DNA from: a virus
Length of the DNA stretch: 64,000 nucleotides
Virus genome (UHGV): UHGV-1364441
Direction: 5' to 3' (one strand)
This document shows, one piece after another, positions 4,694-58,404 of this stretch (position 1 is the first letter of the stretch; each line of letters begins with the position of its first letter). Made by a program: the position numbers and the translations under genes. The notes below the pieces were generated by a model. The model was not told the origin of the DNA. It made no database searches and saw nothing but the letters and a program-made list of their open reading frames with translations.

Positions 4694-7600
4694 TTAATCC
4701 TCAAGCAGAGCATCCAGCGACGGGTCATTAATAGTTGTGCTAGCACGTGGTCGCGGTTGCGGCTGCGATGTTTTGACAACCTTATCCGGATCGCCTTTTG
4801 TATTGTTCTTGTTCACATTCAGAAGATCGTTCAGGATAGAGCAGATGTTATCCAGCGCCTTCAACATAGCAGGATCGTTATTTATAGTGTCAGTAGTTAA
4901 TGGTTGTCTTATTCCGCTTCGTGCGAGATCTGTTACAGTAGGAAGCTGTGGTGGCATAGCAAGAAAAGGTTCTTGCACAGCTGAAGCAGAGCCAAATATG
5001 GCGTTATTGGCACCAGTTGCTATTCCCCTAATGCTATTAGCGGTTTGTTGAATCCCCCCATTCAGCCAGTCTCCAACATTTCTTGTTAATGGGCTAATAG
5101 CTCGCGCAATCGCACTATTCTGTCCAGTAGACTGCATTACAAGATCGTTCAATATCCCTGTACTATCAATCCCCCCAACAAGTCGTGAAAGGTTATCGCC
5201 AACGGCAGGAATTACTGCGGTTCCTGTCTGTTTAAGCCCTGACACCGTGGAATCAAATAGCGAACCAAAGAAGCTCTTATCCTCACCTGTAACCACCTTG
5301 TAGCCGTTGTCATAAATCTGCACATCACTTGGTGCCGTGATAGTTCGTTTTCCAGAGGTAACTACTGGCGCAGCTCCCGCCATAGCCTGGTTGATTGCTA
5401 GAGCCTGCTCCTGCTGTGGAGTTTTCGGTGCTGGCGCTGCAGACGAAAAGCCCTCCATAGCCTGGCTGATTGCCAGAGCCTGCTCCTGCTGTGGAGTTTT
5501 CGGAGTAGAAGGGGATACTTGATCTCCCGGAAGTAGATCAATGATTTCTGTATCGTGATTAACAGTGCGTTTTTGTTGTATGGCTGTTGCGATATCAGCC
5601 ACTTGAGAAGCTTTTTTAAATCCAAAAGATTTACCGGTTAAGCCGGATATCTTTTCAGTAAGAGCCTGATCCATTCCTTTCGCTTTTTCGGAAAGCGAAG
5701 ATATAGAACCAAACGAAGTAGCTAACGCAAAATCCTTTCCCAGGTCCAGACTTGTTCCAGCAAGGCTGGTAGCCGCGCCGCCAAATAAATTACTTGCACC
5801 ACTGATTCCGCTTTCATTTATTGTGATTAACCGCTCAAGCAAACTCGATGGAAAGCCGGTATTAACATCAGCGTTCTCTGGATTAATCGGTTGTGGTTGG
5901 TTACCTGTTTTTTGTGGCTTTTTGGCGGCCTGGGCATGTTGTGCAACTTCAATTGGCTTAGGTGTTGCTGTTGGAACTGCATTCAATACAGGTTGTGCTG
6001 GAGATGTACCATCAGCATATTTCACCTTGCGACCAACGCTATATTGCGAATCACGAGCAATTAGTTGACCACCATTCTCTTGCTGAATTTTATTAAGCCG
6101 CGCCAATGTTTCATCGGAGAACCGCCCTTCCCAACGACCAGTATTTGCGTTGAATGCCCCAAGAGCATTCTTTATGAACTCATTGTTAACCGCCGGGTTT
6201 CCACCTTCTTTCGTCGCTATTGCACGAACTAATTGCGTCATAACCTCTGGGTTGCTGACGTCTATTTTTTCATTAGGCGAGACGCCAAGATATTTACTGA
6301 CGTTATCAATATATTGATTGGTATTGTTCTCATTTGGCGGCGCCCATTTGGAAATGATGCTTGATACCGTCTGTAACTTCTGATGTCCTGCTGCGGCACT
6401 GGTGCCGTTGTAATAGCTTGACACTTGGTTTGCCAACGCCCTGATCCCTTCTTCAGGTGTGTTAAATCGCGCAAAACGTTGTTCACCTTTTGCATTTGGC
6501 GATTCCAGCGTCGCCCCTTCCTGGTTGGCAAAAACAAGATTGCCGAGATTATTATTTCGGTAATTGCGGTTTTTAGCGTTGCTGCCGCCAATATTCAGAT
6601 CCGCTGCAATGGTGTTGTTGGCAGGTGCACTAAATTCTGTTGGAGAAGTATACCCGTGCTCACCAACTCCATCCTCGCCATTACGCCCACCTTGTAATTG
6701 TTCACCAAGAGAATGAATCGCATCGACAGTTTTTTTTGTGCCGTCTTCAACAGCTTTTTTTACTTGTTTCGTGTTTTCGTCAGTGGATAAAAATGTATCC
6801 TTAAGGTTACCAAAAACAGATTTGGTGATATCTACCGCGCCGTTAACACCACGAGCAATATCTCCGGTATCAAAATTCTGAAGTTTTTCACCTGCTCTTT
6901 CAAATCCTAGCGCAGAAATTCCTTTCCCTATCAAGTTCGTTGCGCCCGACACCAAGCCCCCCATATCGAGCACATTAGCTGTTGCGTAAGCCGTTTTTTG
7001 CTGTTCGGATACAGCATCATCGTCACTTAATCCAAAGGCTGCCTTTTGCGCATCTGTATCAGTGTAACCATCTATAGCGTCATATCCCGCCATAGCCAGC
7101 GATCCGATGATCGGGATAGCTCTTGCAGCTGTAGAAGCAGCTGATTTAACACCTATTTTTGCAGCACTTTTGAGGGCTACGGATTCGGTTTTTTTCTTTG
7201 CAACAGTTTCACCTGTTTTAATTGTGGCCTCTTCGGCAACAACACCTGCTGGCTTAACTGCCTTTGCTGTGTTTTTTGTTTCTTTAGCAATACCCTTAGA
7301 TGCGTCGCTTGTGGTGCTGATGTCTTTGGCTTTACTAACCTTTGTTTTAACAGTCTTTGCAGCTCCGGCACCAGCTCCAGCAGCAGCGGTTCCGGCAGCG
7401 GCTTTTTCACCAACAGAAAGGGCTTTTTTCCCCAGATTGCGACCTTTCCTTTTCGGTTTGTTCCGTTTATTTTTACCAGCCTGATCGCCAATATTGATTT
7501 TATTTCTTCTGCTTGCTCGATTTCTCCAGAGATCACTTAAGCCGAACTTATTCCCAGAAGATACTGATTTGCGTAGCTTAACTACTTCGTCGGAGACATT

Positions 7601-8638
7601 TTCCAGACCATCAATTATTTTGTTGTCATTGGTCTGAAGAATTTTTGTTTGCTCTTCTACTGCTTGTGCTGATTTTGTCTCAACAGCATTATTAAATGCT
7701 GTTGCAGAGGTTGCTTTTTGAGTATTCACCACCGCCGGATAAGTGATAGCTGGTGATGTCGCTTTCGAAGATAAAGCCTCACCTTTCCCCTTTTCTACCC
7801 ATTCTTTAAGAGATTCTGCTTTACCTGTGATCTCTTTAGTAATGTCGTACATGCCGCGAGCAGCCATCCACAACGGACCACCAGCGCCGACACCTGCGGC
7901 ATCTGTTAAAGACTCTTCACTGGAAGACTGATTGCCATCTACCCCTATAATGGAGCCTAATTTCCGGAGGAAGCCTTCTTGTAGTTTGGCGTCGGCCTTA
8001 CGTGCGTTCTGCCATTCTTTTTTTCTGGCTATATCTTCGTTGTTTTTCTGGGATACAAAGCGTCCATTACTATCCCGAAGCGGTCCTTTTTGGCTTTGGG
8101 GGGATTGTGGTTCAAGAGGAGCAGAATTAGCGGCTACTGGCACAGAACCTTTCAACTTTTGGGCGGACTGGCGTGATGACGCAAAATGAACGCGCTCTGA
8201 TGTGTTGGTTGCAACAATGAGACGTTCTTCTCCGTTGTTGACCTGCGTCCTCCCTTTTTTCATCGGAAGGCGTTTTATATATGGGTTAGCTTGGGTATTC
8301 TTGGCATCACCAGAGACATAGGGTTCGCTTGCTATGCGTCTACGGGATAGTCTTTGACTTACTTTACCTTGATTTTCACCAAGTTGAGTTATAGACCCTC
8401 TATCAGAGAGAATGGCGTTTTTGATCTCAGCAAGAGCCTTAAGTTCGTTTGTGCTCGCCCCCTGTATAGCGTCAATTATTGCGATACGGTCTTTATTCTC
8501 TTTCAAAATAACCTCTCTTTTGCCAGCGCGATCAACGTTTCCCGGCTTGAGCTTTGTATTTTTCTTCCAGGGCTTTTGACATATGGAGTGCTCGCCATTG
8601 CGGTAATTGTTCAACGTCGCTAACGGGCTGATATCCAT
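4694..8638 (-). CDS. large tail protein (tape-measure / P1 Sit-like by size and position)
   Basis: 1314-aa ORF, Ala/Gly/Lys-rich with internal duplicated segment (QALAISQAMEGF...QALAINQAMAGA), upstream of baseplate genes; I could not confirm a lytic transglycosylase motif. Confidence 0.55.
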   Translation of the reverse strand: MDISPLATLNNYRNGEHSICQKPWKKNTKLKPGNVDRAGKREVILKENKDRIAIIDAIQGASTNELKALAEIKNAILSDRGSITQLGENQGKVSQRLSRRRIASEPYVSGDAKNTQANPYIKRLPMKKGRTQVNNGEERLIVATNTSERVHFASSRQSAQKLKGSVPVAANSAPLEPQSPQSQKGPLRDSNGRFVSQKNNEDIARKKEWQNARKADAKLQEGFLRKLGSIIGVDGNQSSSEESLTDAAGVGAGGPLWMAARGMYDITKEITGKAESLKEWVEKGKGEALSSKATSPAITYPAVVNTQKATSATAFNNAVETKSAQAVEEQTKILQTNDNKIIDGLENVSDEVVKLRKSVSSGNKFGLSDLWRNRASRRNKINIGDQAGKNKRNKPKRKGRNLGKKALSVGEKAAAGTAAAGAGAGAAKTVKTKVSKAKDISTTSDASKGIAKETKNTAKAVKPAGVVAEEATIKTGETVAKKKTESVALKSAAKIGVKSAASTAARAIPIIGSLAMAGYDAIDGYTDTDAQKAAFGLSDDDAVSEQQKTAYATANVLDMGGLVSGATNLIGKGISALGFERAGEKLQNFDTGDIARGVNGAVDITKSVFGNLKDTFLSTDENTKQVKKAVEDGTKKTVDAIHSLGEQLQGGRNGEDGVGEHGYTSPTEFSAPANNTIAADLNIGGSNAKNRNYRNNNLGNLVFANQEGATLESPNAKGEQRFARFNTPEEGIRALANQVSSYYNGTSAAAGHQKLQTVSSIISKWAPPNENNTNQYIDNVSKYLGVSPNEKIDVSNPEVMTQLVRAIATKEGGNPAVNNEFIKNALGAFNANTGRWEGRFSDETLARLNKIQQENGGQLIARDSQYSVGRKVKYADGTSPAQPVLNAVPTATPKPIEVAQHAQAAKKPQKTGNQPQPINPENADVNTGFPSSLLERLITINESGISGASNLFGGAATSLAGTSLDLGKDFALATSFGSISSLSEKAKGMDQALTEKISGLTGKSFGFKKASQVADIATAIQQKRTVNHDTEIIDLLPGDQVSPSTPKTPQQEQALAISQAMEGFSSAAPAPKTPQQEQALAINQAMAGAAPVVTSGKRTITAPSDVQIYDNGYKVVTGEDKSFFGSLFDSTVSGLKQTGTAVIPAVGDNLSRLVGGIDSTGILNDLVMQSTGQNSAIARAISPLTRNVGDWLNGGIQQTANSIRGIATGANNAIFGSASAVQEPFLAMPPQLPTVTDLARSGIRQPLTTDTINNDPAMLKALDNICSILNDLLNVNKNNTKGDPDKVVKTSQPQPRPRASTTINDPSLDALLED

Positions 8639-49092: not shown

Positions 49093-49137
49093 GGCGCATA
49101 AAGAAGCCCGCCAGACCAGGCGGGCTTTTTGTTGATA

Positions 49138-50232
49138 TCATTCAATGATTTTTTCGGCTGTCAGCCAGCTAATTTCATGCCTGTCTTTCGGCGGTTTTAG
49201 CATGTGAGCATATTCAGCGACATGCTCCCACGGAATTGTTTTTGCCCACTCAACGATAGCATTGTGATCTGCAGTGAAGAGTGGAATAGTGTGCGATTTC
49301 AACCATTCTAATGTCGTGACGCCATGTTTTTTGGCGTGGTGCTGCGCATGATGCCGGGCTATCACTCGTAATGGCATTGTCCATTCACTACCATCAGGCA
49401 TCGAAAAGCGCATTGTCTTCGGCATATCTGATTCAAGAACAGCCTCCCTAATACCAGGGAACTCACCAAGAATCATACGACGATAGTCATCACTATTTCG
49501 CCCGCCATACCTTTCGGCAAAATGATCAAGATATTCTTGGGTAATAAATGGTGAATCCTCCGCACTCAGCTTAATGGCTTTATATACACCACTCGTATTA
49601 TCTTCAGCTAAAGCACGTCCATGATGTGAATCATAAAAAAAGCCTATTTCCTCTGGTGACGGAATTGAAGTGAGCAATATGCGTGAATCACCACTAGTCA
49701 TGCTTGCCCACACAATGCTGTATGCCCGATCGCTGATATGTGCGGAATCCACAATAATGAATAAAAGATGGTCGGCGTAGTGACCTGCAATGCTATCTTC
49801 ATAGTTAAGGCGGTAGTTACAAAAGCACATTCCCCAAAATTCATTGAACATCAGACCGCTATCACCGACCTTAAAATACTCAATGATAAAAGGTTGTTTT
49901 TTCAGCAATGCCTCCCAACATTGCCACACATATGCAACAATTCCTCTTTTGCAAGCATTTGATTTTGGATAAACAATTACTGTCCGGGAATCAGGATACA
50001 TAATCGTATAAAGGGTACTAATAACAGCAAGCACTTGCGGTCGTCCGATCCCATACGGAGTGGTGACAGTAGCTTTTGCATTATTGGGCTGTATAGCTTC
50101 AACAATTTGTTGTTGCTGGTGGCTTAAATCAATATCAAACAATTCTTTTGCTGCCAGTACCCAATTGTCTTTATATTTCTCCACCAGCGACAGCCAGCGC
50201 GGATCTTTATAAATATTGCTCTTAGTCGCCAT
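49138..50232 (-). CDS. terminase large-subunit paralog with degenerate ATPase motifs
   Basis: Collinear with the PacB-like TerL at 55532..57040 (DPRW..., SHQQQ.I...Q, AGHYADHLLFIIVDSA, GFFYDSHH, ED.PF.T..., YGGR) but Walker A GHGTGKS replaced by TPYGIGRP and Walker B ILDEAS by IIVDSA; shorter C-terminus. Confidence 0.6.
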   Translation of the reverse strand: MATKSNIYKDPRWLSLVEKYKDNWVLAAKELFDIDLSHQQQQIVEAIQPNNAKATVTTPYGIGRPQVLAVISTLYTIMYPDSRTVIVYPKSNACKRGIVAYVWQCWEALLKKQPFIIEYFKVGDSGLMFNEFWGMCFCNYRLNYEDSIAGHYADHLLFIIVDSAHISDRAYSIVWASMTSGDSRILLTSIPSPEEIGFFYDSHHGRALAEDNTSGVYKAIKLSAEDSPFITQEYLDHFAERYGGRNSDDYRRMILGEFPGIREAVLESDMPKTMRFSMPDGSEWTMPLRVIARHHAQHHAKKHGVTTLEWLKSHTIPLFTADHNAIVEWAKTIPWEHVAEYAHMLKPPKDRHEISWLTAEKIIE

Positions 50233-50989
50233 CTGCCACTTCCTTAACTTCTTCTTTGGCCTGTTCTGCAATCGCCGCACGGCATTTCGCCCTGGCTGTA
50301 GCGATTGCTTCAGCTCGCACATCGTCTGGAATCGTTGACGTGATATACATATCCAGTTCTTCGGCACGGAATACTGTTTGGTCCAGATATTCGCGTAGCA
50401 TCCAGGTAAATTCGAAATCACACGCGATAATCTCTGCGCTACCTTCTGCACCATTTGGGAAATGAATAAATGCCTGTTTAGCCAAACCGATAACACGACA
50501 TGCGGTTGCCAAAACAGCGACAACCAGGTTTACATTTTCACACGCTACGGGCTGATTAACGCCGGAGATTACTCCATTTAACTGTCGGTTATATGGAAGG
50601 TAGTTTGAGATGCGTTCTACGCGCCATGTGCCAGTCAGGCTGCCATTTTTAAATATAATTGGTGTAACGGATAGCCCAAGCTCGCGTATAAGTCGTTGCG
50701 CTATAGCAGGATCATTAAACAGGTCTAATGCTACACATTCGAAAGACTGCGCAAGGGCAAACAGTTCTTCCAGAGAGTAGTCTTTGCCCCTGGCGGTGAT
50801 GTAACGACGAACGCCGCTGTCTGCATCACTCCATATAGCTACGCCATGCTCTTCATTCAGCTCTTCATTAAAGCCGAGATACGTCATGATAGTGCGTTCA
50901 ATCGTGTCAAACGGCAGTGACATGTCGGCGTTAACAGCCACCAGCAGGCCATTACGCAAGCGGTATTGAATTGTTTTAGTGCTTTCCAT
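50222..50989 (-). CDS. hypothetical protein
   Basis: 255-aa ORF overlapping start of TerL paralog. Confidence 0.45.
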   Translation of the reverse strand: MESTKTIQYRLRNGLLVAVNADMSLPFDTIERTIMTYLGFNEELNEEHGVAIWSDADSGVRRYITARGKDYSLEELFALAQSFECVALDLFNDPAIAQRLIRELGLSVTPIIFKNGSLTGTWRVERISNYLPYNRQLNGVISGVNQPVACENVNLVVAVLATACRVIGLAKQAFIHFPNGAEGSAEIIACDFEFTWMLREYLDQTVFRAEELDMYITSTIPDDVRAEAIATARAKCRAAIAEQAKEEVKEVADGD

Positions 50990-50995
50990 GTCAAA

Positions 50996-51658
50996 TCACT
51001 CCACAACAAACCAGTCACAGGCCAGCAGGTCGCCAACTGAAGGCACCCACGGAACAACTACACCTTGTGCATTTTTTAAGGCGAAATAAGCACCATACGG
51101 AACGAGGTCGCCGGGGAAATATCCCTTAATGGCTTCCATTCGTGCCGGGTACTGTCCTTCGGGAACCAGCCAGCAGAATTGGTTTTCGCCGTTCCACCCG
51201 CGTCGAGCAACTTTCTTGCCATCCTTCAACCACATCAGCGCGTCAGAAAAGTCGGCTGCTTCAAGGTCGATTTCTTCTTGTAGAGTAGCGATACCGCCAG
51301 CAGAAATAGTTACGTCCCTGGCTGTAATGAATGTCACCCCATTGTGACCTTCAATGCTGAGCGATACCCCATTTTCGGAGGCGTCGTTAACCCGGCTATA
51401 GCATTTTTCAAATGCTTTCTCTGGCACATAGACCAGATAACCATTTTCAGCAGTGACGAGATATCCTCCTATTTGCGGTCGGAACTTTTCCAAGAACACA
51501 CCATCAACACGAAGCGTCATTCCTTTTGGCTCCACGACTTCGATGCTGCCAAAAATGGGCGCATAAGCTTTGCCGACAATAACAATATCTTTGATTTTCG
51601 ATGCCCGAATGATGCTGTGGCATTTGTATTTGGGGAACACCTGAAAAGTGCTGGCCAT
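50996..51658 (-). CDS. two-domain protein with possible DUF2829-like C-terminal domain
   Basis: C-terminal FSDALMWLKDGKKVARRGWNGENQF...GDLLACDWFVV resembles DUF2829 consensus as I recall it; family call tentative. Confidence 0.4.
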   Translation of the reverse strand: MASTFQVFPKYKCHSIIRASKIKDIVIVGKAYAPIFGSIEVVEPKGMTLRVDGVFLEKFRPQIGGYLVTAENGYLVYVPEKAFEKCYSRVNDASENGVSLSIEGHNGVTFITARDVTISAGGIATLQEEIDLEAADFSDALMWLKDGKKVARRGWNGENQFCWLVPEGQYPARMEAIKGYFPGDLVPYGAYFALKNAQGVVVPWVPSVGDLLACDWFVVE

Positions 51659-51672
51659 AATCCTTCCTCTAC

Positions 51673-52167
51673 TTAAAACTTTGCGTACTGAAGCGGTGTA
51701 CGCTTGATTTCAACGCGGCCTTCCGATGTGCTACCAAAGCCACCAGCACCACGCTCCGTTTCGTTGAGTTCCTCAACCTCGACTAGTGAGACTTGTTCAA
51801 CACGCTCAAAAATTCCTTGCATGACAGCCATTCCAGGCTTGAGACAAACGCCTTCCCCGCCTGGATCAGTAATCAGTTTTGCCATGATTTCGCCGCGATA
51901 ATCGGAGTCGATAATTCCTACGCAGTTAGCCAGGCGAGTATGTTTTTTGCAGCCCAATCCTGATCGCGGATAGAGTTTCAGACACCAGCCGGGCGGGATC
52001 TCCATAGCCAGTCCGGTATACACCCACCAGCTTGAGGAAATTGCACCATTGCTATCGACGCATGGTTTTATTTCAACAGCCTCAAAATCCATCGCCGCCG
52101 ATCCGGAGGTGGCATAAGCTGGAAGTTTTGCTGCCGGATGTAGGCGTTTCACTTTTACGTAAATCAT
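51673..52167 (-). CDS. dut: dUTP diphosphatase (trimeric dUTPase)
   Basis: AYATSGSAAMD, PRSGLG, GIIDSDYRGE, RGAGGFGSTS motifs. Confidence 0.85.
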   Translation of the reverse strand: MIYVKVKRLHPAAKLPAYATSGSAAMDFEAVEIKPCVDSNGAISSSWWVYTGLAMEIPPGWCLKLYPRSGLGCKKHTRLANCVGIIDSDYRGEIMAKLITDPGGEGVCLKPGMAVMQGIFERVEQVSLVEVEELNETERGAGGFGSTSEGRVEIKRTPLQYAKF

Positions 52168-52640
52168 TGTTTTTTAGCTCTCTGCGTGAAGGTGTAAACC
52201 CGACGTTTGATATGTGGAACGGTAGGAACAGGAAGACAGGAACTTTCAATAACTCCTTGCTCCTCCAGCGATCGCACCGCCCGCAAGAACTGCGACGTGT
52301 CGCCGCCAAACTGGCGGGCATAGGTGCTGCCGTTATGAAGTATTTGAGCTATTACCCGAGCTTTTGTCTGGCTGTCACGATATGCGAATAGCCGCACGGC
52401 CTCTTCTGGCGCAATCGCTAACTGATAGCCTTTCCCGGCACGGTGTCGAATGAATCCATGCGCCAGTAGGTTTTTGAGTTCGTTACGAGTGCGAACAGAT
52501 CCGTAATCCAGGAAGTGTGGATTGATAACGACTGGCTTAAACCATTCCGTAGGTGCTTTAGCTAATAGAGCTAACAGCTTCCCGGACAATTCTGGATAGG
52601 AAGACGGGTAACAATTCAGAGATGGGTAATAAGTTTTCAC
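52164..52640 (-). CDS. hypothetical protein
   Basis: 158-aa coupled ORF. Confidence 0.4.
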   Translation of the reverse strand: MKTYYPSLNCYPSSYPELSGKLLALLAKAPTEWFKPVVINPHFLDYGSVRTRNELKNLLAHGFIRHRAGKGYQLAIAPEEAVRLFAYRDSQTKARVIAQILHNGSTYARQFGGDTSQFLRAVRSLEEQGVIESSCLPVPTVPHIKRRVYTFTQRAKKQ

Positions 52641-52981
52641 CGACGCCCCCTTGCCGGATATCGACCTGCATTAGTATCCGGTGCAATAAAGCCGGTAGTG
52701 GGGCGAGTGAAAGCGAGATTAATCTTCTCGACCATAGTGCGATAATTTTCCTGATAGTGGGCCAGGAGTTTTTCGGCGGCAATGATGGTTACTTTCCGGA
52801 CGTAGCTTTCTGCTTCCTCCAGATTTCGCCAGTTTTTTTCGAGGGTAAACACAGGGACGGCCTCAAGCCCGGTCATGATGCCGAACACAACGACAGCATG
52901 ACTGTTCTTAACACCAGCGGCGAAGGTTACGGTGTAACCATCCACCTTGAAGCGTCTTGATTCCGTGATTTGACTCTGCAA
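52637..52981 (-). CDS. hypothetical protein
   Basis: 114-aa ORF, first gene of operator-controlled operon. Confidence 0.4.
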   Translation of the reverse strand: MQSQITESRRFKVDGYTVTFAAGVKNSHAVVVFGIMTGLEAVPVFTLEKNWRNLEEAESYVRKVTIIAAEKLLAHYQENYRTMVEKINLAFTRPTTGFIAPDTNAGRYPARGRR

Positions 52982-53054: not shown

Positions 53055-54083
53055 TTACGAATCCATCAGGCGGCTATTAGCCCCCACAGACACGCCACCA
53101 CGGCGAAGATACCGCATAAGTGTTTCCGGTTTCTTCCAGGTTCCTTCCTGCATGATCTCCACCATAGACACCTGCTTTTCAGCCATATCAATAGCGGCCC
53201 CGACGCGTGCACTATGCCCGGTCCACGTCCGGTATCTTCCTTTGTTTGGCGTAGCATCTCTTTTATTCAGCAACACCCAGGCGTCGCTGAATATTTTCTC
53301 CATTGCAGGTGCAGTAAGGGGCGTTGTCGTGATCCTGGCCTTATTGCTACGGTGTATCGGCGGGAACAGCACTGCGTCAGGATGTTCGCGAAGCCCGGAA
53401 ACATCCAGCCAGTCATTCAGCACAGCGGTAGTGCGACGGGAAAGCACCTTATCAAGCCCGGCGGCGGTCGTTATTGTCTTCGTGTGTGAAATATGTAGCG
53501 TGACAGTGTCACCTGTTTGGTCCAGATCTCCTACACGAATACGCGAGATTTCCGACATACGCATCAGCGTATTGTATGCAACAAAGAGAAAAGCCCGGTT
53601 GCGCAGATCCACCAGCCGTTCTGACCTGGACAACAGGACGTCGAGCAGTTTCAGATCGTCCCACCGCAGCGGTATAGCCTGGCCTGTTCGTTCGCCTTTT
53701 TCAGTTGCCGCTTCGCGCCGGATGCGCCGCATAGCCAGAGAAACACTTTTATCATCCGAAAGTGGCGGAAGGCCACAATGCGAAAGCAGCATGTTCAGCA
53801 TGGCGTAGTGCTTATCAATGGTGGTCGAAGCCAGATCGGCATCATGCAGCTGAAGAAAATACTCGCGGGCCATTTCTGGTGAGATCGGAAACCAGGCAAG
53901 CTGGCGAGCGTGACACCAGCGCGCCCAGGAATGAAACACCAAACGGAGGTCGCGCAGAGTATTCGGCGCATAAGCTCCCTGGTCATTCATGAACCGCATA
54001 AAGTTTTCTGCGGCTTCCTGGTACTCTTTGCCAATGTTGCGCAGAAAACCACCGGAACTGCCAGAGATAATTAATTCACTCAT
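53055..54083 (-). CDS. cre: Cre-like tyrosine recombinase
   Basis: Collinear with P1 Cre as recalled: WFP..PE..R.Y.L.L, SVSLAMRRIRRE, RMSEISRIRVGDL, HISHTKT, WTGHSARVGAAIDMA, EIMQEGTW; catalytic R-H-R-Y context retained. Confidence 0.85.
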   Translation of the reverse strand: MSELIISGSSGGFLRNIGKEYQEAAENFMRFMNDQGAYAPNTLRDLRLVFHSWARWCHARQLAWFPISPEMAREYFLQLHDADLASTTIDKHYAMLNMLLSHCGLPPLSDDKSVSLAMRRIRREAATEKGERTGQAIPLRWDDLKLLDVLLSRSERLVDLRNRAFLFVAYNTLMRMSEISRIRVGDLDQTGDTVTLHISHTKTITTAAGLDKVLSRRTTAVLNDWLDVSGLREHPDAVLFPPIHRSNKARITTTPLTAPAMEKIFSDAWVLLNKRDATPNKGRYRTWTGHSARVGAAIDMAEKQVSMVEIMQEGTWKKPETLMRYLRRGGVSVGANSRLMDS

Positions 54084-54439
54084 GAAACTATTTAACCTCT
54101 ATATACAGATGACGCTACGCGAAAAATATAAAAATGACAGGGTAGCTATAAGTTAATTTTCAAGATTCAAGCCTTTGATTCGAGGCACGTATTTTCAGTG
54201 ATGTCAATACTGATCATCTACCCATGATTATAGCCTAACTTTAAATAATGCCAATTATCTAAAGTTAGAAATTTAGGAATTTTTTTTCTTTCCGCGCAGA
54301 TGGGCAATGCATTGCTGGTGTGGGCTTTAAGTTATGCCTGGCAGTTTTTAAGCAGAATTTTCTAAATTGGATGATAAAAAAATGCATCTTGATCCTTTAC
54401 TCACCCTGTTATTCGGCATAGATTTGTCATAGTAATTTT

Positions 54440-54468: not shown

Positions 54469-55506
54469 ATGAGTAAGAAGTCGATCGAGAAAGAGTACAA
54501 ACGGTTCCTGCAAACCGCTGAACGGTGGAAAGAGCTGGTGGTCGCAAACTCTGTTTTCCATGATACCAGTTATTCCGGCGAGGAATTCCGCCATGTTGCA
54601 CTAACACATGATCAGAATGTGCTAGAAGAAGCTGAAAAGTGCCTCACAGAATGGAAAGCCTTTGTTGACTTGTGCCGTAACGCTGACGGCAAAGCGTCTA
54701 ACATTGTTGAGTCTGTATATTCTCCGATCCCATTCATTATCGAGGACACAAATCAAAGCACGCATATTGTTGTGCAAAGCGCGACCACCACCCGCTCATT
54801 TACGCGCGAAAATCTGCTCAAAAAATATGATGCAATTATAAAGAAAAGCCTGAAAAACAAGATATTTTCGCAGATTGTTGGTGCACTTGAAGAAGAGCGC
54901 CGTTTTTTCGCATCAGAACCTGAAGGGGAAGTTTACCGGGCGCGCAAAGATGGATACACAGATGTAGTGCTTACAACAAACATTGAAGGCAGCAATGCTC
55001 TGTCACGATTCAGGGTAGGCGCACACGGAGCCTTAGTGTTCGCAAAACTTCCGAACACCACAGTGCCCGTTGTTAATAATGTCGGCGAACGTCGCAGCAT
55101 TACTATTTATTCTGGGGTTGAGTCGATACCTTGCGGCCTGCTTGGTGACTTTAGTCTCTATCGCGTTCGCGATCTGGAGAAACACCAACCAAGCTATGTT
55201 GCGAAGTCATACATCTTGCGAAACATCGACATCCGCAATGAGAGCTTAAAGAACAAATCAGCCAAAATGCTTGAGGAAGCCGATCCGGCTATTCGCCATA
55301 TCATTGAGCGTAAAATACAGACAGCACGCGAAGCGATGGCGCGACTGAATAAAATGGATCTGGAGTTGTTAGACGTAATGATGACATCCGGAGATGACCT
55401 GACAGGCATAAAACTGACAGACGCGCGGAAAAGATACGGTAAAACCATAGAAGAACGTTACGGGTTCACTTTCTCCCAAACACAGCACGCCGCTAAACTC
55501 TGGTAA
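54469..55506 (+). CDS. hypothetical protein (candidate regulator in the pacB-cre interval)
   Basis: 345-aa ORF with operator motifs in its own promoter; no family recognised. Confidence 0.45.
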   Translation: MSKKSIEKEYKRFLQTAERWKELVVANSVFHDTSYSGEEFRHVALTHDQNVLEEAEKCLTEWKAFVDLCRNADGKASNIVESVYSPIPFIIEDTNQSTHIVVQSATTTRSFTRENLLKKYDAIIKKSLKNKIFSQIVGALEEERRFFASEPEGEVYRARKDGYTDVVLTTNIEGSNALSRFRVGAHGALVFAKLPNTTVPVVNNVGERRSITIYSGVESIPCGLLGDFSLYRVRDLEKHQPSYVAKSYILRNIDIRNESLKNKSAKMLEEADPAIRHIIERKIQTAREAMARLNKMDLELLDVMMTSGDDLTGIKLTDARKRYGKTIEERYGFTFSQTQHAAKLW

Positions 55507-55531: not shown

Positions 55532-57040
55532 TTATATATCCAGATCTGGCATTTCCACATCTGCAAGAACCTGATCGCGGAAGGTAGCCATTTCAGCGCC
55601 GATATCTTCATTAGCAGGAACATAGTCCACCAGCATTGTAAAGCAGTAGGTATCCCATCGGTCAGGTGATTTGATGTTCAGCTTTTGCCGCATGTGCTCC
55701 TTGCGCATCATCGCCATCTTCCCTTCTTCATTAAGTAAAAAGGGGATTTTTGACGCTTGCTCTGCCGTTTTAGGGTCACTGTCTATTCGCATACGACCTG
55801 ACTTTATGGCATCACGAGCCATAATATTTGCGTAGGCACGCTGGTTAACAAAACGCTCCTTGTCTTTGTTCGAAAACATGGGTTTCCCCCACCGAATCCG
55901 TACCGGATTAGCCCCACGGCGCACCAGCTGCGCACAGGTATCTGAACCAAAACCGTCTGCGTCAACCGCGATTGTAATATTCGGGTATTTATCCGGCGTG
56001 CATTCGTTGTATATAAAGTCAGCAAAAGCCAGCGGGTCCATAGTCCCTGGCATTTCCATTACCTTAAAGTTAACAACACGCCGCTTTTCCCGGTGACCAG
56101 ACACTTTACAGATATTAAGAACTGACTTGTCTCGCCCGTTACCAACGTCAGCAGTAGCCACCCATCCCCAGTTTTTCTCCAACAACACCTTGCGCCGCGC
56201 AGCGCGATCGCATTCATCACGACCAAGCAAATAGCCGTTAATCTCCCGAGGAAACTGACCAAGAACCTTGACCATGTACTCAATAGAATCGCGCCCGCCA
56301 TATTCCAGGAGTTTCTGCCTGATGAATTGTGGTGTGACGAACGGTGATTCTTCTGAGTTAAGAACAATTGCTGTCCAGATCCCTTTCGGGTTGTCTGGGG
56401 TTTTAGCTTGAGAATGGTGCGAATCGTAGAAATAACCACTTGGCCTTGTTGGCTGGGATAGCATCAACATTCGGTTATCTTCTTCAGTCAGAGCGCCAGT
56501 CATTACGCCGATCGCTTTATCAGATATACCTGATGCTTCATCCAGAATTAGAAGCAAATGTGCCGCGTGCTCCCCCGCCAGAGCTTCTTCGTTACCGAGT
56601 CGATAGCCTTTGCAGAGAACTTCCCAGATCCCCTTTCGAGAGCGTTCATAAAACATGGTGTCAGACAGGACAAAATAGGTCTGTAACCACCCATGACGCT
56701 TAACGGCATTCGCCCAATACTGTTTAACGTATTTAAATACACCTGTCTTAACCTGACCTATTTTGTTAGCAACAATGATGACACGGGCATCGGGGAACAG
56801 AATCAAATAAATCAGCAACAACATAGCCGTTAGCGACGATTTCCCTGTACCGTGACCAGAGGTAACAGTGGTTCTGCTCCCTTTTTGCTGTACGGACTGG
56901 ATAATCTCCTGCTGCTGGTGGGAGGGAAACATCCCGAATATATCAACAACAGCCTGGGTAAAGTTGTAGCGGTATTTGATTACCATATCGCGCCAGCGTG
57001 GATCGCTGGTGACGCATTTAATCTTGCGCCCACCAGCCAT
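55532..57040 (-). CDS. pacB: terminase large subunit (PacB-like)
   Basis: Walker A GHGTGKSS, Walker B LLILDEAS, ~500 aa, directly downstream of small-subunit-like gene. Confidence 0.8.
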   Translation of the reverse strand: MAGGRKIKCVTSDPRWRDMVIKYRYNFTQAVVDIFGMFPSHQQQEIIQSVQQKGSRTTVTSGHGTGKSSLTAMLLLIYLILFPDARVIIVANKIGQVKTGVFKYVKQYWANAVKRHGWLQTYFVLSDTMFYERSRKGIWEVLCKGYRLGNEEALAGEHAAHLLLILDEASGISDKAIGVMTGALTEEDNRMLMLSQPTRPSGYFYDSHHSQAKTPDNPKGIWTAIVLNSEESPFVTPQFIRQKLLEYGGRDSIEYMVKVLGQFPREINGYLLGRDECDRAARRKVLLEKNWGWVATADVGNGRDKSVLNICKVSGHREKRRVVNFKVMEMPGTMDPLAFADFIYNECTPDKYPNITIAVDADGFGSDTCAQLVRRGANPVRIRWGKPMFSNKDKERFVNQRAYANIMARDAIKSGRMRIDSDPKTAEQASKIPFLLNEEGKMAMMRKEHMRQKLNIKSPDRWDTYCFTMLVDYVPANEDIGAEMATFRDQVLADVEMPDLDI

Positions 57041-58404
57041 TAGTCATCCTCCGGCGGTTCTATCGCAATATCATCATCTCCGGCGTCATACCCTGCATCT
57101 GATGCATCATAATCACCGTAAATTTCAGCCGTTGCCGAAGGGTCAATGTCCAACTCTTCATCGTTGGCCTCGAATTCCCCAGCCTTACGCTCGCCATTGT
57201 GGTCGTAATCTCCGCACCCCAGATCTTCAACAATGGTTGCCACATCCGCCCGGCGCTCTGCCAGCCATTGCGGATGGTTAGCCTGAAGCGATGCAAACTC
57301 CTTCGCTTCTTTGTCCAGCTGTTCATCATCAACATCATTGATGTCAGAAACTGGAGGTTCGAGAAGAGTGATAGCTTTCGCCGCGCGCGCCGCGAGGATA
57401 GCCGGGACACTGACACCCTGACGCTCGATGTATTCAGCAACACCGATATCGTCCAGCTCCTCGCGCTCACGCATACGTATAGCGGCGGCGATAACTCTGG
57501 CTGCGCGTGCGTCAGCGCCAATGCGATATTCAATCTCTTTGCCACGCTGTTCGGCCTGTAGGCGTGCTAATTCGAGTTTTTCTCTGGCCTCGGCCTCTCT
57601 GAATGCTTGCTGGCGAGCACCCTGACGAAGTTTTTCATCACCCTGTCGCAGCTTTTGTTCGGACTGATATATCGCTGCCAACCTACTGATAAAATCGTTC
57701 ATGTAGTAGGCCGCGTCACTGATTAGACCGAGAAGTCGCTGCCCAGGGTGCATTCCTTCTGGCTGTTCATCACCCAGGGCGTCTATCTCCGCCTGTAGGC
57801 GTTCGGCCTCCTGATCAACAATGCTTTGGTACTGAAGTGCGCGTTCTTGCGCCATTTGAATTGCTAACCGCAGGTGCTCTTCTGCGCCGTTCTTCATCAT
57901 GTCGCGAGCCACACTCGTAGTGGGCAACGTGGCACGCTGCACAGCACCGCCAGGGATCATTGCTGAAGATCCCTCGATTTTTGAGGCGCATTTATCTTCG
58001 GTGGGGATCATTTTCGCCATTTTTTCGCGCAATGATCTCCTGACAGATTCTTTTATCTCATTGTTATTATTTGCATTATTTTCATGATCCGAAGTTTTCT
58101 TTCTCGGCATACTTCGGAAAGAACCTGTGCCCTGTGAATTGTCAATTTCTGTAAATTTTGTTGTTTCTGTACCCTCTTCTGGTCTTTTTTTTGCTCTTCC
58201 TGCCCGTTTTTTTTGAGGTGATTTGGTGCTTTTTTTTGTAGTCTTCACCTGCGACCGCACCTCATTTTTTTTCATATTGAGATGCTTTCTGGCGGTATTG
58301 AAGCTAAGGTCGTGTTGCTCGCAGTATTCCTTTACGGTGATCCCTTTTTCTTCACGCAACGCTATAAATTTGGCGCGGTGCTCTTCCCAATTAACCAGAC
58401 TCAT
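57040..58404 (-). CDS. pacA: terminase small subunit / pac-recognition protein (PacA-like)
   Basis: N-terminal HTH-like segment, Lys-rich linker, acidic C-terminus; contains a GATC-rich pac-like cluster within its coding sequence as in P1 pacA. Confidence 0.55.
   Translation of the reverse strand: MSLVNWEEHRAKFIALREEKGITVKEYCEQHDLSFNTARKHLNMKKNEVRSQVKTTKKSTKSPQKKRAGRAKKRPEEGTETTKFTEIDNSQGTGSFRSMPRKKTSDHENNANNNNEIKESVRRSLREKMAKMIPTEDKCASKIEGSSAMIPGGAVQRATLPTTSVARDMMKNGAEEHLRLAIQMAQERALQYQSIVDQEAERLQAEIDALGDEQPEGMHPGQRLLGLISDAAYYMNDFISRLAAIYQSEQKLRQGDEKLRQGARQQAFREAEAREKLELARLQAEQRGKEIEYRIGADARAARVIAAAIRMREREELDDIGVAEYIERQGVSVPAILAARAAKAITLLEPPVSDINDVDDEQLDKEAKEFASLQANHPQWLAERRADVATIVEDLGCGDYDHNGERKAGEFEANDEELDIDPSATAEIYGDYDASDAGYDAGDDDIAIEPPEDD
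57955..58089. other. pac-like cluster of five GATC sites in TGATC(A/G)-type contexts
   Basis: GATC at 57955, 57968, 58006, 58034, 58086 within 135 bp, two on one side and three on the other of a ~35-bp core. Confidence 0.5.

Follow-up and report, generated by a model that had tools for sequence, protein, structure and literature searches.

The window analysed here, a stretch of 64,000 nucleotides, belongs to the D6 type within the P1 family of phage-plasmids and shows about 95% DNA identity to Escherichia phage D6 around the gene under study, the gene itself excepted. As originally predicted, this gene is an intact open reading frame, located on the minus strand and encoding 364 amino acids. 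It closes an accessory operon led by cre and lies about 5.3 kb from pacA-pacB, outside the packaging module. The features of the region are as follows.

49138..50232, minus strand: PacB/TerL-derived pseudo-ATPase paralog (open reading frame list; 364 aa plus stop; ATG at 50232)
49456..50232, minus strand: N-terminal domain of the paralog, residues 1-259, predicted TerL ATPase fold with dead motifs (AlphaFold model and Foldseek)
50038..50064, minus strand: Walker A remnant TTPYGIGRP, residues 57-65 (PacB: TSGHGTGKS)
49741..49767, minus strand: Walker B remnant LLFIIVDSA, residues 156-164 (PacB: LLLILDEAS)
49621..49638, minus strand: FYDSHH motif, residues 199-204, near-invariant in PacB and the paralogs
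49141..49455, minus strand: C-terminal domain X, residues 260-364, about 100 aa long and in the position of the nuclease
50239..50245, minus strand: Shine-Dalgarno-like AAGGAAG, 6 nt upstream of the paralog ATG (direct reading of the sequence)
49098..49125, minus strand: intrinsic terminator GCCCGCC-TGGTCT-GGCGGGC followed by TTCTTTAT, starting 13 nt past the paralog stop codon
50222..50989, minus strand: isaA-like gene, 255 aa, conserved upstream partner of the paralog (phrog_2326)
50996..51658, minus strand: Tad2-like/DUF2829 protein (Pfam Tad2-like, E 1.6e-22)
51673..52167, minus strand: dUTPase (open reading frame list, D6 annotation)
52164..52640 and 52637..52981, minus strand: two hypothetical genes of the operon (open reading frame list)
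53055..54083, minus strand: Cre-type recombinase (open reading frame list, D6 annotation)
54227..54254, minus strand: promoter-like site TTGGCA-16 nt-TATAAT upstream of cre (consensus match alone, 11/12 positions)
54469..55506, plus strand: C1-like repressor, 345 aa
55532..57040, minus strand: resident functional PacB (TerL), 502 aa, with intact motifs (phrog_2 terminase large subunit, E 2e-40)
57040..58404, minus strand: pacA (small terminase)
58401..58793, minus strand: lpa
18229, 28133, 28156, 35352, 36962, 37622, 41365, 54438 and 58869: starts of the ATTTTCTAACATAA 13-mer

The genes of the operon are separated by gaps of at most 14 nt, save for 73 nt after cre, and transcription likely starts at the promoter-like site upstream of cre. 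At the distal end, the start of the paralog and the end of the isaA-like gene share 11 nt, and the terminator separates the paralog from humD, which converges on it from the plus strand. We took the ATG at 50232 as the start because a ribosome-binding site is present and the start in homologues agrees; a longer reading frame from TTG 50523 (461 aa; 438 aa in one record), which would overlap the isaA-like gene out of frame, was rejected. An N-terminally extended paralog model of 438 aa, overlapping the isaA-like gene, is nevertheless carried by one public record. The paralog matches phrog_5902 from end to end (E 2.5e-163). The isaA-like protein shares 48% identity with P1 IsaA, and also with the product of the isaA-like gene that precedes the paralog in P1-type elements. 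We also considered IsaA as a paralog of PacA, which would make the pair a duplicated pacA-pacB, and rejected it, since BLASTP returned nothing and hhalign gave a probability of 0.2%.

Other differences between the window and its relatives were seen nearby. The 220-aa protein encoded at 50996..51658 carries a C-terminal Tad2-like domain (anti-Thoeris family, DUF2829), its N-terminal 90 or so residues match a different PHROG, and in phage D6 a shorter gene corresponds to the C-terminal half alone. In the closest relatives a phd-doc addiction module lies between the paralog and humD (L009 6131..6803, L012 4131..4803); tblastn finds no match to phd-doc anywhere in the 64 kb window, and the phd-doc-less junction (49093..49100) falls at the shared terminator.

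The original prediction had placed the gene in a repressor-controlled operon, which finds no support in the window. The P1 C1 operator consensus does not occur in the window, even with 3 mismatches allowed. The motif ATTTTCTAACATAA, which resembles the P1 C1 operator TCTAAT.AAATTT and is present in nine copies in the window at no more than 2 mismatches (rough chance expectation 1-2), is a candidate for the operators of the D6-type repressor. Two of the copies lie just upstream of the c1-like repressor gene and of lpa; none of the nine falls between 49000 and 54300, where the paralog operon lies. Only a weak match links the repressor encoded at 54469..55506 to the NCBIfam P1 C1 equivalog (E 3.8e-5; 23 bits, with the cut-off at 500), which fits a putative immunity type distinct from that of P1. 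For P1-type copies of the paralog, C1 control is probable, because two such elements (L002 and L010) present the P1 C1 operator Ossb upstream of ssb, with the paralog homologue downstream.

The similarity between the paralog and the resident PacB is real and well beyond chance. Residues 7-264 align with PacB at 37% identity and 62% positives over 258 aa (BLASTP E 6e-61), which bears out the predicted collinearity with 55532..57040, although the collinear stretch covers about 258-262 residues and not the 300 or so first proposed. Across PacB types, overall identity is 32-41% over about 260 residues; the closest segment comprises residues 191-259 (38-53% identity), within which FYDSHH lies. No signal of co-variation with the resident PacB type was detected, the paralog being 33-41% identical to every PacB type. 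The AlphaFold model of the paralog (mean pLDDT 74.7) returned only large-terminase structures as significant PDB matches in Foldseek (22/22 at E<=0.001), among them T4 gp17, Sf6 gp2, D6E, the P74-26 ATPase domain and the Avs3-bound PhiV-1 terminase, with alignments of about 250-340 columns. By both BLASTP and Foldseek, the protein thus carries an ASCE ATPase domain with the TerL fold. Pfam, NCBIfam and PADLOC yielded no match for the paralog, the IsaA-like protein or domain X, and PDB sequence searches none either; in PADLOC-DB v2, the paralog and the isaA-like protein had no match at E<=0.1.

To compare motifs, we aligned 105 full-length PacB orthologues, ranging from Enterobacterales to Vibrio, Aeromonas and Photobacterium, with eight paralog representatives. 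Walker A (SGHGTGKS) and Walker B (DEAS) are invariant in 105/105 PacB orthologues. All eight paralogs instead present TTPxGIG, with T, P and I fixed, and none has an in-register Lys, the position being occupied by R, Q, E, C or H. In place of the Walker B Asp the paralogs have V, I, T, P or A, and where PacB has the catalytic Glu they have N, D or E. The window's copy reads TTPYGIGRP where PacB has TSGHGTGKS, so that the predicted replacement of Walker A stands. The predicted alteration of Walker B also stands, but its reading as DE to DS was one residue off: in register, PacB L-I-L-D-E-A faces paralog I-I-V-D-S-A, which gives D to V and E to D.

More broadly, 71 columns of the N-terminal domain are at least 95% conserved in PacB, of which the paralogs keep 26, mostly structural G, W, F, Y and P together with the FYDSHH motif, and lose another 26, including positions of Walker A, Walker B and the SQPTR motif that follows strand beta-5. 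The fold, the N-terminal helical arm, part of the Q-motif region and the lid-side FYDSHH segment are retained. Such a pattern, in which the core is kept and the catalytic sites are lost, is the usual signature of a pseudoenzyme. Alignment and predicted fold together show the paralog to be a non-catalytic derivative of the ATPase domain of the large terminase PacB.

The C-terminal part of the protein is another domain altogether. What had been described as a shortened nuclease region is, by alignment, a replacement: residues 260-364 do not align by BLASTP with the RNase H-like nuclease of PacB, whose place is taken by the unrelated domain X of about 100 aa. An exhaustive phmmer search with 104 residues of domain X returned 199 cluster representatives at E<=1e-3, mostly stand-alone proteins of about 100 aa, and a profile search returned 618 matches. 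Alignments of the family show invariant W, A and F columns and conserved Trp, Pro and Ala positions. Domain X matches the C-terminal part of phrog_17928 (E 4.7e-13); we found no Pfam model, no PDB sequence relative and no solved fold for it. As a stand-alone gene, X is found in early regions of phage and prophage genomes, outside packaging modules. In 5/7 contexts a replication or recombination gene is close by, and two contexts showed no neighbours that could be recognised. Examples include a gene directly after SSB and near YqaJ, genes near DUF3799 exonucleases, near Rad52/NinB and near DnaB/primase, and one after an N-antiterminator gene; in Cronobacter phage JK004, X is a separate protein of 98 aa.

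A second arrangement was found in another P1-like element (L020), where the protein P0015 begins with X and continues with a PacB-like domain, the reverse of the order in the window. Its P-loop, GSGTGTTT, has no Lys, its ATPase-like part is nearest to the Citrobacter paralog (46% identity), and its X is 32% identical to that of the window. The occurrence of both orders, with distantly related X domains, suggests that X and a dead PacB-like domain were fused twice independently and that they are functionally linked and work together. The same fusions suggest that stand-alone X proteins might also act on TerL-fold ATPases.

Several observations on individual X-containing genes were made alongside. 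The P0015 gene (L020 6001..6741) is cut short by an insertion carrying an opposite-strand ORF of 548 aa (6738..8384), which we take to be a Tn3-family transposase from its appearance; the gene is transcribed divergently from ref, with an AbiH gene nearby. Two proteins from the phmmer search, P0051 (248 aa) and P0139 (506 aa), show X in other company, joined to a Lar-like domain for restriction alleviation and as the C-terminal part of DUF1351-containing proteins (phrog_17928). These fusions hint at a portable partner module of early phage proteins. An allele of 266 aa (P0007 type, L015 4001..4801), in the same D6-type operon, has lost most of X through a deletion of about 270 bp; six database members carry this X-deletion allele.

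The paralogs form a single clade set apart from all PacB orthologues. This separate clustering, together with TTPxGIG, delimits a clade of PacB-derived pseudo-ATPases (part of phrog_5902) to which the window's copy belongs. Paralogs are more diverse than PacB, with a minimum identity of 33% among them versus 44% among PacB proteins. In seven close or moderately diverged pairs, Nei-Gojobori estimates of dN/dS range from 0.06 to 0.44 and hold for both domains, which marks a selected pseudo-ATPase and not a decaying copy. These comparisons show the paralog to be the product of an old duplication, kept by purifying selection. Loss of the motifs in 8/8 representatives, selection and the exclusively terminase structural matches all uphold the prediction of a catalytically inactive TerL copy maintained as an intact gene.

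The N-terminal domain has a history of its own. Between subtypes its DNA identity is 51-65%, the lowest in the operon, and that of domain X is 91-95%; for the window against L009, synonymous divergence amounts to 1.47 in the N-domain and 0.19 in domain X. The N-domain does not follow the resident PacB type. These values point to an N-domain that may be exchanged, or diverge rapidly, as a module. With regard to conservation across related phage-plasmids, a full-length paralog was found in 163 of 749 P1-family plasmid records (about 22%), the 749 being plasmid records with a PacB-like match. The subtype of the window occurs in 36/5426 complete E. coli genomes; in every case the carrier is a plasmid of about 90 kb and the annotation reads hypothetical.

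Two main genomic settings were observed. In D6-type elements (the window, L009, L012 and L015), the isaA-like gene and the paralog end the operon led by cre; phage D6 itself has the isaA-like gene and lacks the paralog. In P1-type elements (L002, L010, L013 and L014), the order is ssb, isaA, paralog, hxr, and Dar anti-restriction genes adjoin the paralog. The pairing of an isaA-like gene with the paralog thus recurs in relatives of both types. The Citrobacter subtype departs from this and pairs with ref instead: on the Citrobacter freundii plasmid NZ_CP115618.1 (L011 4333..5789), a paralog of 263 aa that consists of the N-domain only overlaps the stop of the gene for a Ref-family RecA-dependent nuclease, a third gene partnership.

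In canonical P1, isaA-IS1-isaB holds the slot that isaA and the paralog hold in P1-type relatives, in agreement with the expectation that P1 lacks such a gene. The presence of IS1 and isaB in the slot suggests why P1 lacks the paralog and makes P1 a natural null background for complementation. We tried P1 isaB as a remnant of the paralog and rejected it: BLASTP with IsaB gave E 0.084, and tblastn in P1 found pacB alone. The slot corresponds to the region of difference RD-2 of P1-like plasmids, for which "orfs of unknown function" are listed and a relationship to PacB is not mentioned (PMC6906374). The isaA module of P1 is dispensable for lytic growth (PMC10695390), which fits an accessory role.

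With the Walker Lys and Asp and the nuclease domain lost, neither ATP hydrolysis nor DNA cutting is to be expected, and we infer that the paralog probably works by binding rather than by catalysis. Our tentative proposal is that it is a binding-only modulator or inhibitor of pacase assembly. The likeliest targets would be the partners of a TerL ATPase domain, namely PacA, PacB (through ring or lid contacts) and the pac-DNA complex, and by binding them the paralog could titrate or modulate assembly of the pacase, either that of the element itself or that of a competing P1-family phage, while domain X would contribute a second binding activity. The surfaces that it retains, the N-terminal arm and residues 191-259 with FYDSHH, are candidate contacts for the small terminase and neighbouring subunits. 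The ribosome-binding site, the overlap with the upstream gene and the terminator likewise count in favour of this reading. Its patchy distribution, accessory operon and fast-evolving N-domain speak for a part in conflict or regulation and against one in core packaging.

Several points count against a partner of the terminase. The paralog is equidistant from all PacB types, so that no co-variation signal singles out a cognate terminase partner. Its neighbours ssb, ref, cre and dut are early or recombination genes and not packaging genes, stand-alone X genes are likewise early and outside packaging modules, and some paralog variants lack X. In addition, the C-terminal domain of TerL, which docks on the portal in many phages, is absent from the paralog. 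A wider reading, which we regard as doubtful, would have the dead terminase domain serve as a weapon (a poison subunit or titrator of competitors' pacase) or as a nucleotide-free decoy for Avs1-3 and Upx, with domain X as a widespread partner module of early phage proteins.

The gene neighbourhoods bear on a different explanation, in which the dead TerL-like domain and domain X would form a non-catalytic adaptor in early DNA metabolism, working with SSB, the Ref-type nuclease, RecA or recombination intermediates and having nothing to do with packaging. The P1-type order ssb, isaA, paralog lies downstream of the C1-controlled ssb promoter/operator, the N-domain-only Citrobacter paralog overlaps the end of ref, the X-plus-N-domain form of L020 adjoins ref, and stand-alone X genes keep company with SSB/YqaJ, DUF3799 exonuclease, Rad52/NinB and DnaB/primase genes. 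Adjacency is weak evidence, however, because temperate phages pack many unrelated accessory genes into their early regions, and two of the stand-alone X contexts have no recognisable neighbours at all. No sequence feature of the paralog points to DNA binding, and the dispensability of P1 isaA for lytic growth (PMC10695390) also speaks against a role of this kind, which we consider unlikely.

The proteins that sense terminases offer another possibility: a TerL-fold surface without ATP might occupy Avs1-3 and Upx without activating them and so shield the real PacB. The ATPase domain by itself is what EcAvs2 and Upx recognise, and recognition by EcAvs2 uses both terminase-bound ATP and a bridging ATP (bioRxiv 10.64898/2026.04.30.721860), so that a nucleotide-free copy could bind without triggering the sensor. 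The Avs3-bound terminase among the structural matches, the Tad2-like neighbour, the Dar genes next to P1-type copies, the X homologue fused to a Lar-like domain, and the patchy distribution and rapid N-domain divergence would all be consistent with such a decoy. Against it, an early TerL-like fold might equally well trigger the sensors, as T4 vs.8 activates EcAvs2 (bioRxiv 10.64898/2026.04.30.721860); no PADLOC or anti-defence family matches the paralog, and our literature searches found no such decoy described. We therefore rate shielding of PacB as quite improbable.

A decaying duplicate, left open by chance, could explain the loss of all catalytic motifs, the X-deleted variants and the copy truncated by a transposon, but this would be most surprising and is effectively refuted by the selection analysis: reading frames stay intact across lineages only 33-50% identical, dN/dS is as given above in both domains, the paralogs have their own fixed signature TTPxGIG, and in both main genomic settings the gene still overlaps the isaA-like one. 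Equally hard to credit is an active NTPase with a non-canonical P-loop. In its favour, GIG leaves the loop rich in glycine, a Lys follows one position further on in some subtypes (GIGQKT, GIGHKS, GIGCKH) and the Q-motif region is partly kept. Against it, the window's copy reads GIGRPQ with no Lys, P1-type copies read GIGETS, and in all copies the Walker B Asp is hydrophobic or absent, with a variable catalytic Glu position.

Modulation or inhibition of pacase assembly by binding thus remains the reading that we tentatively favour. Our literature searches found no described PacB paralog or dead-terminase inhibitor, and databases carry the paralog as hypothetical or mislabel it as a terminase; the P1-type copy at MH422554.1 16006..17100 (L002 6995..8089) and the protein P0002 are both annotated "terminase large subunit". 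Mislabelled genomes appear to have two TerL genes, and typing or phylogeny based on TerL can be confused as a result. A pseudoenzyme derived from the packaging motor, conserved and under selection, would add a new type to the accessory proteins of phages. It would offer a handle on the regulation of packaging and on competition among P1-family elements, on phage decoys against terminase-sensing immunity, and on the role of domain X, which is found in more than 600 proteins and has no annotation.

Among known systems, the PacB proteins of P1, P7 and D6-type elements share with the paralog the ATPase fold, the N-terminal arm, FYDSHH and the YGGR...GxFP end of the domain. Unlike PacB, the paralog lacks the Walker A Lys, the Walker B Asp and SQPTR, has X in the place of the nuclease, belongs to an accessory operon at a distance from pacA and is optional, being present in about 22% of elements. 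The isaA-IS1-isaB arrangement of P1 (RD-2, PMC6906374) occupies the same slot, from isaA to hxr, as the P1-type paralog, and IsaB is unrelated to it. The only comparable case that we found is T4 vs.8, a stand-alone homologue of the T4 terminase ATPase domain that is uncharacterised and has its motifs kept (bioRxiv 10.64898/2026.04.30.721860). Both vs.8 and the paralog are second, nuclease-less copies of a TerL ATPase domain encoded outside the phage packaging module. Compared by description, vs.8 is reported to keep Walker A and Walker B and to activate EcAvs2, whereas the paralog has lost these motifs and gained a domain. The packaging-interference proteins of satellites, such as SaPI Ppi and PICI Rpp, are non-enzymatic, bind a terminase subunit and block or redirect packaging; the likeness of the paralog to them would lie in the proposed mechanism, as a functional analogy alone. 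Ppi and Rpp are unrelated to TerL in sequence and fold and are encoded by satellites, whereas the paralog is a derivative of TerL encoded by the phage-plasmid itself.
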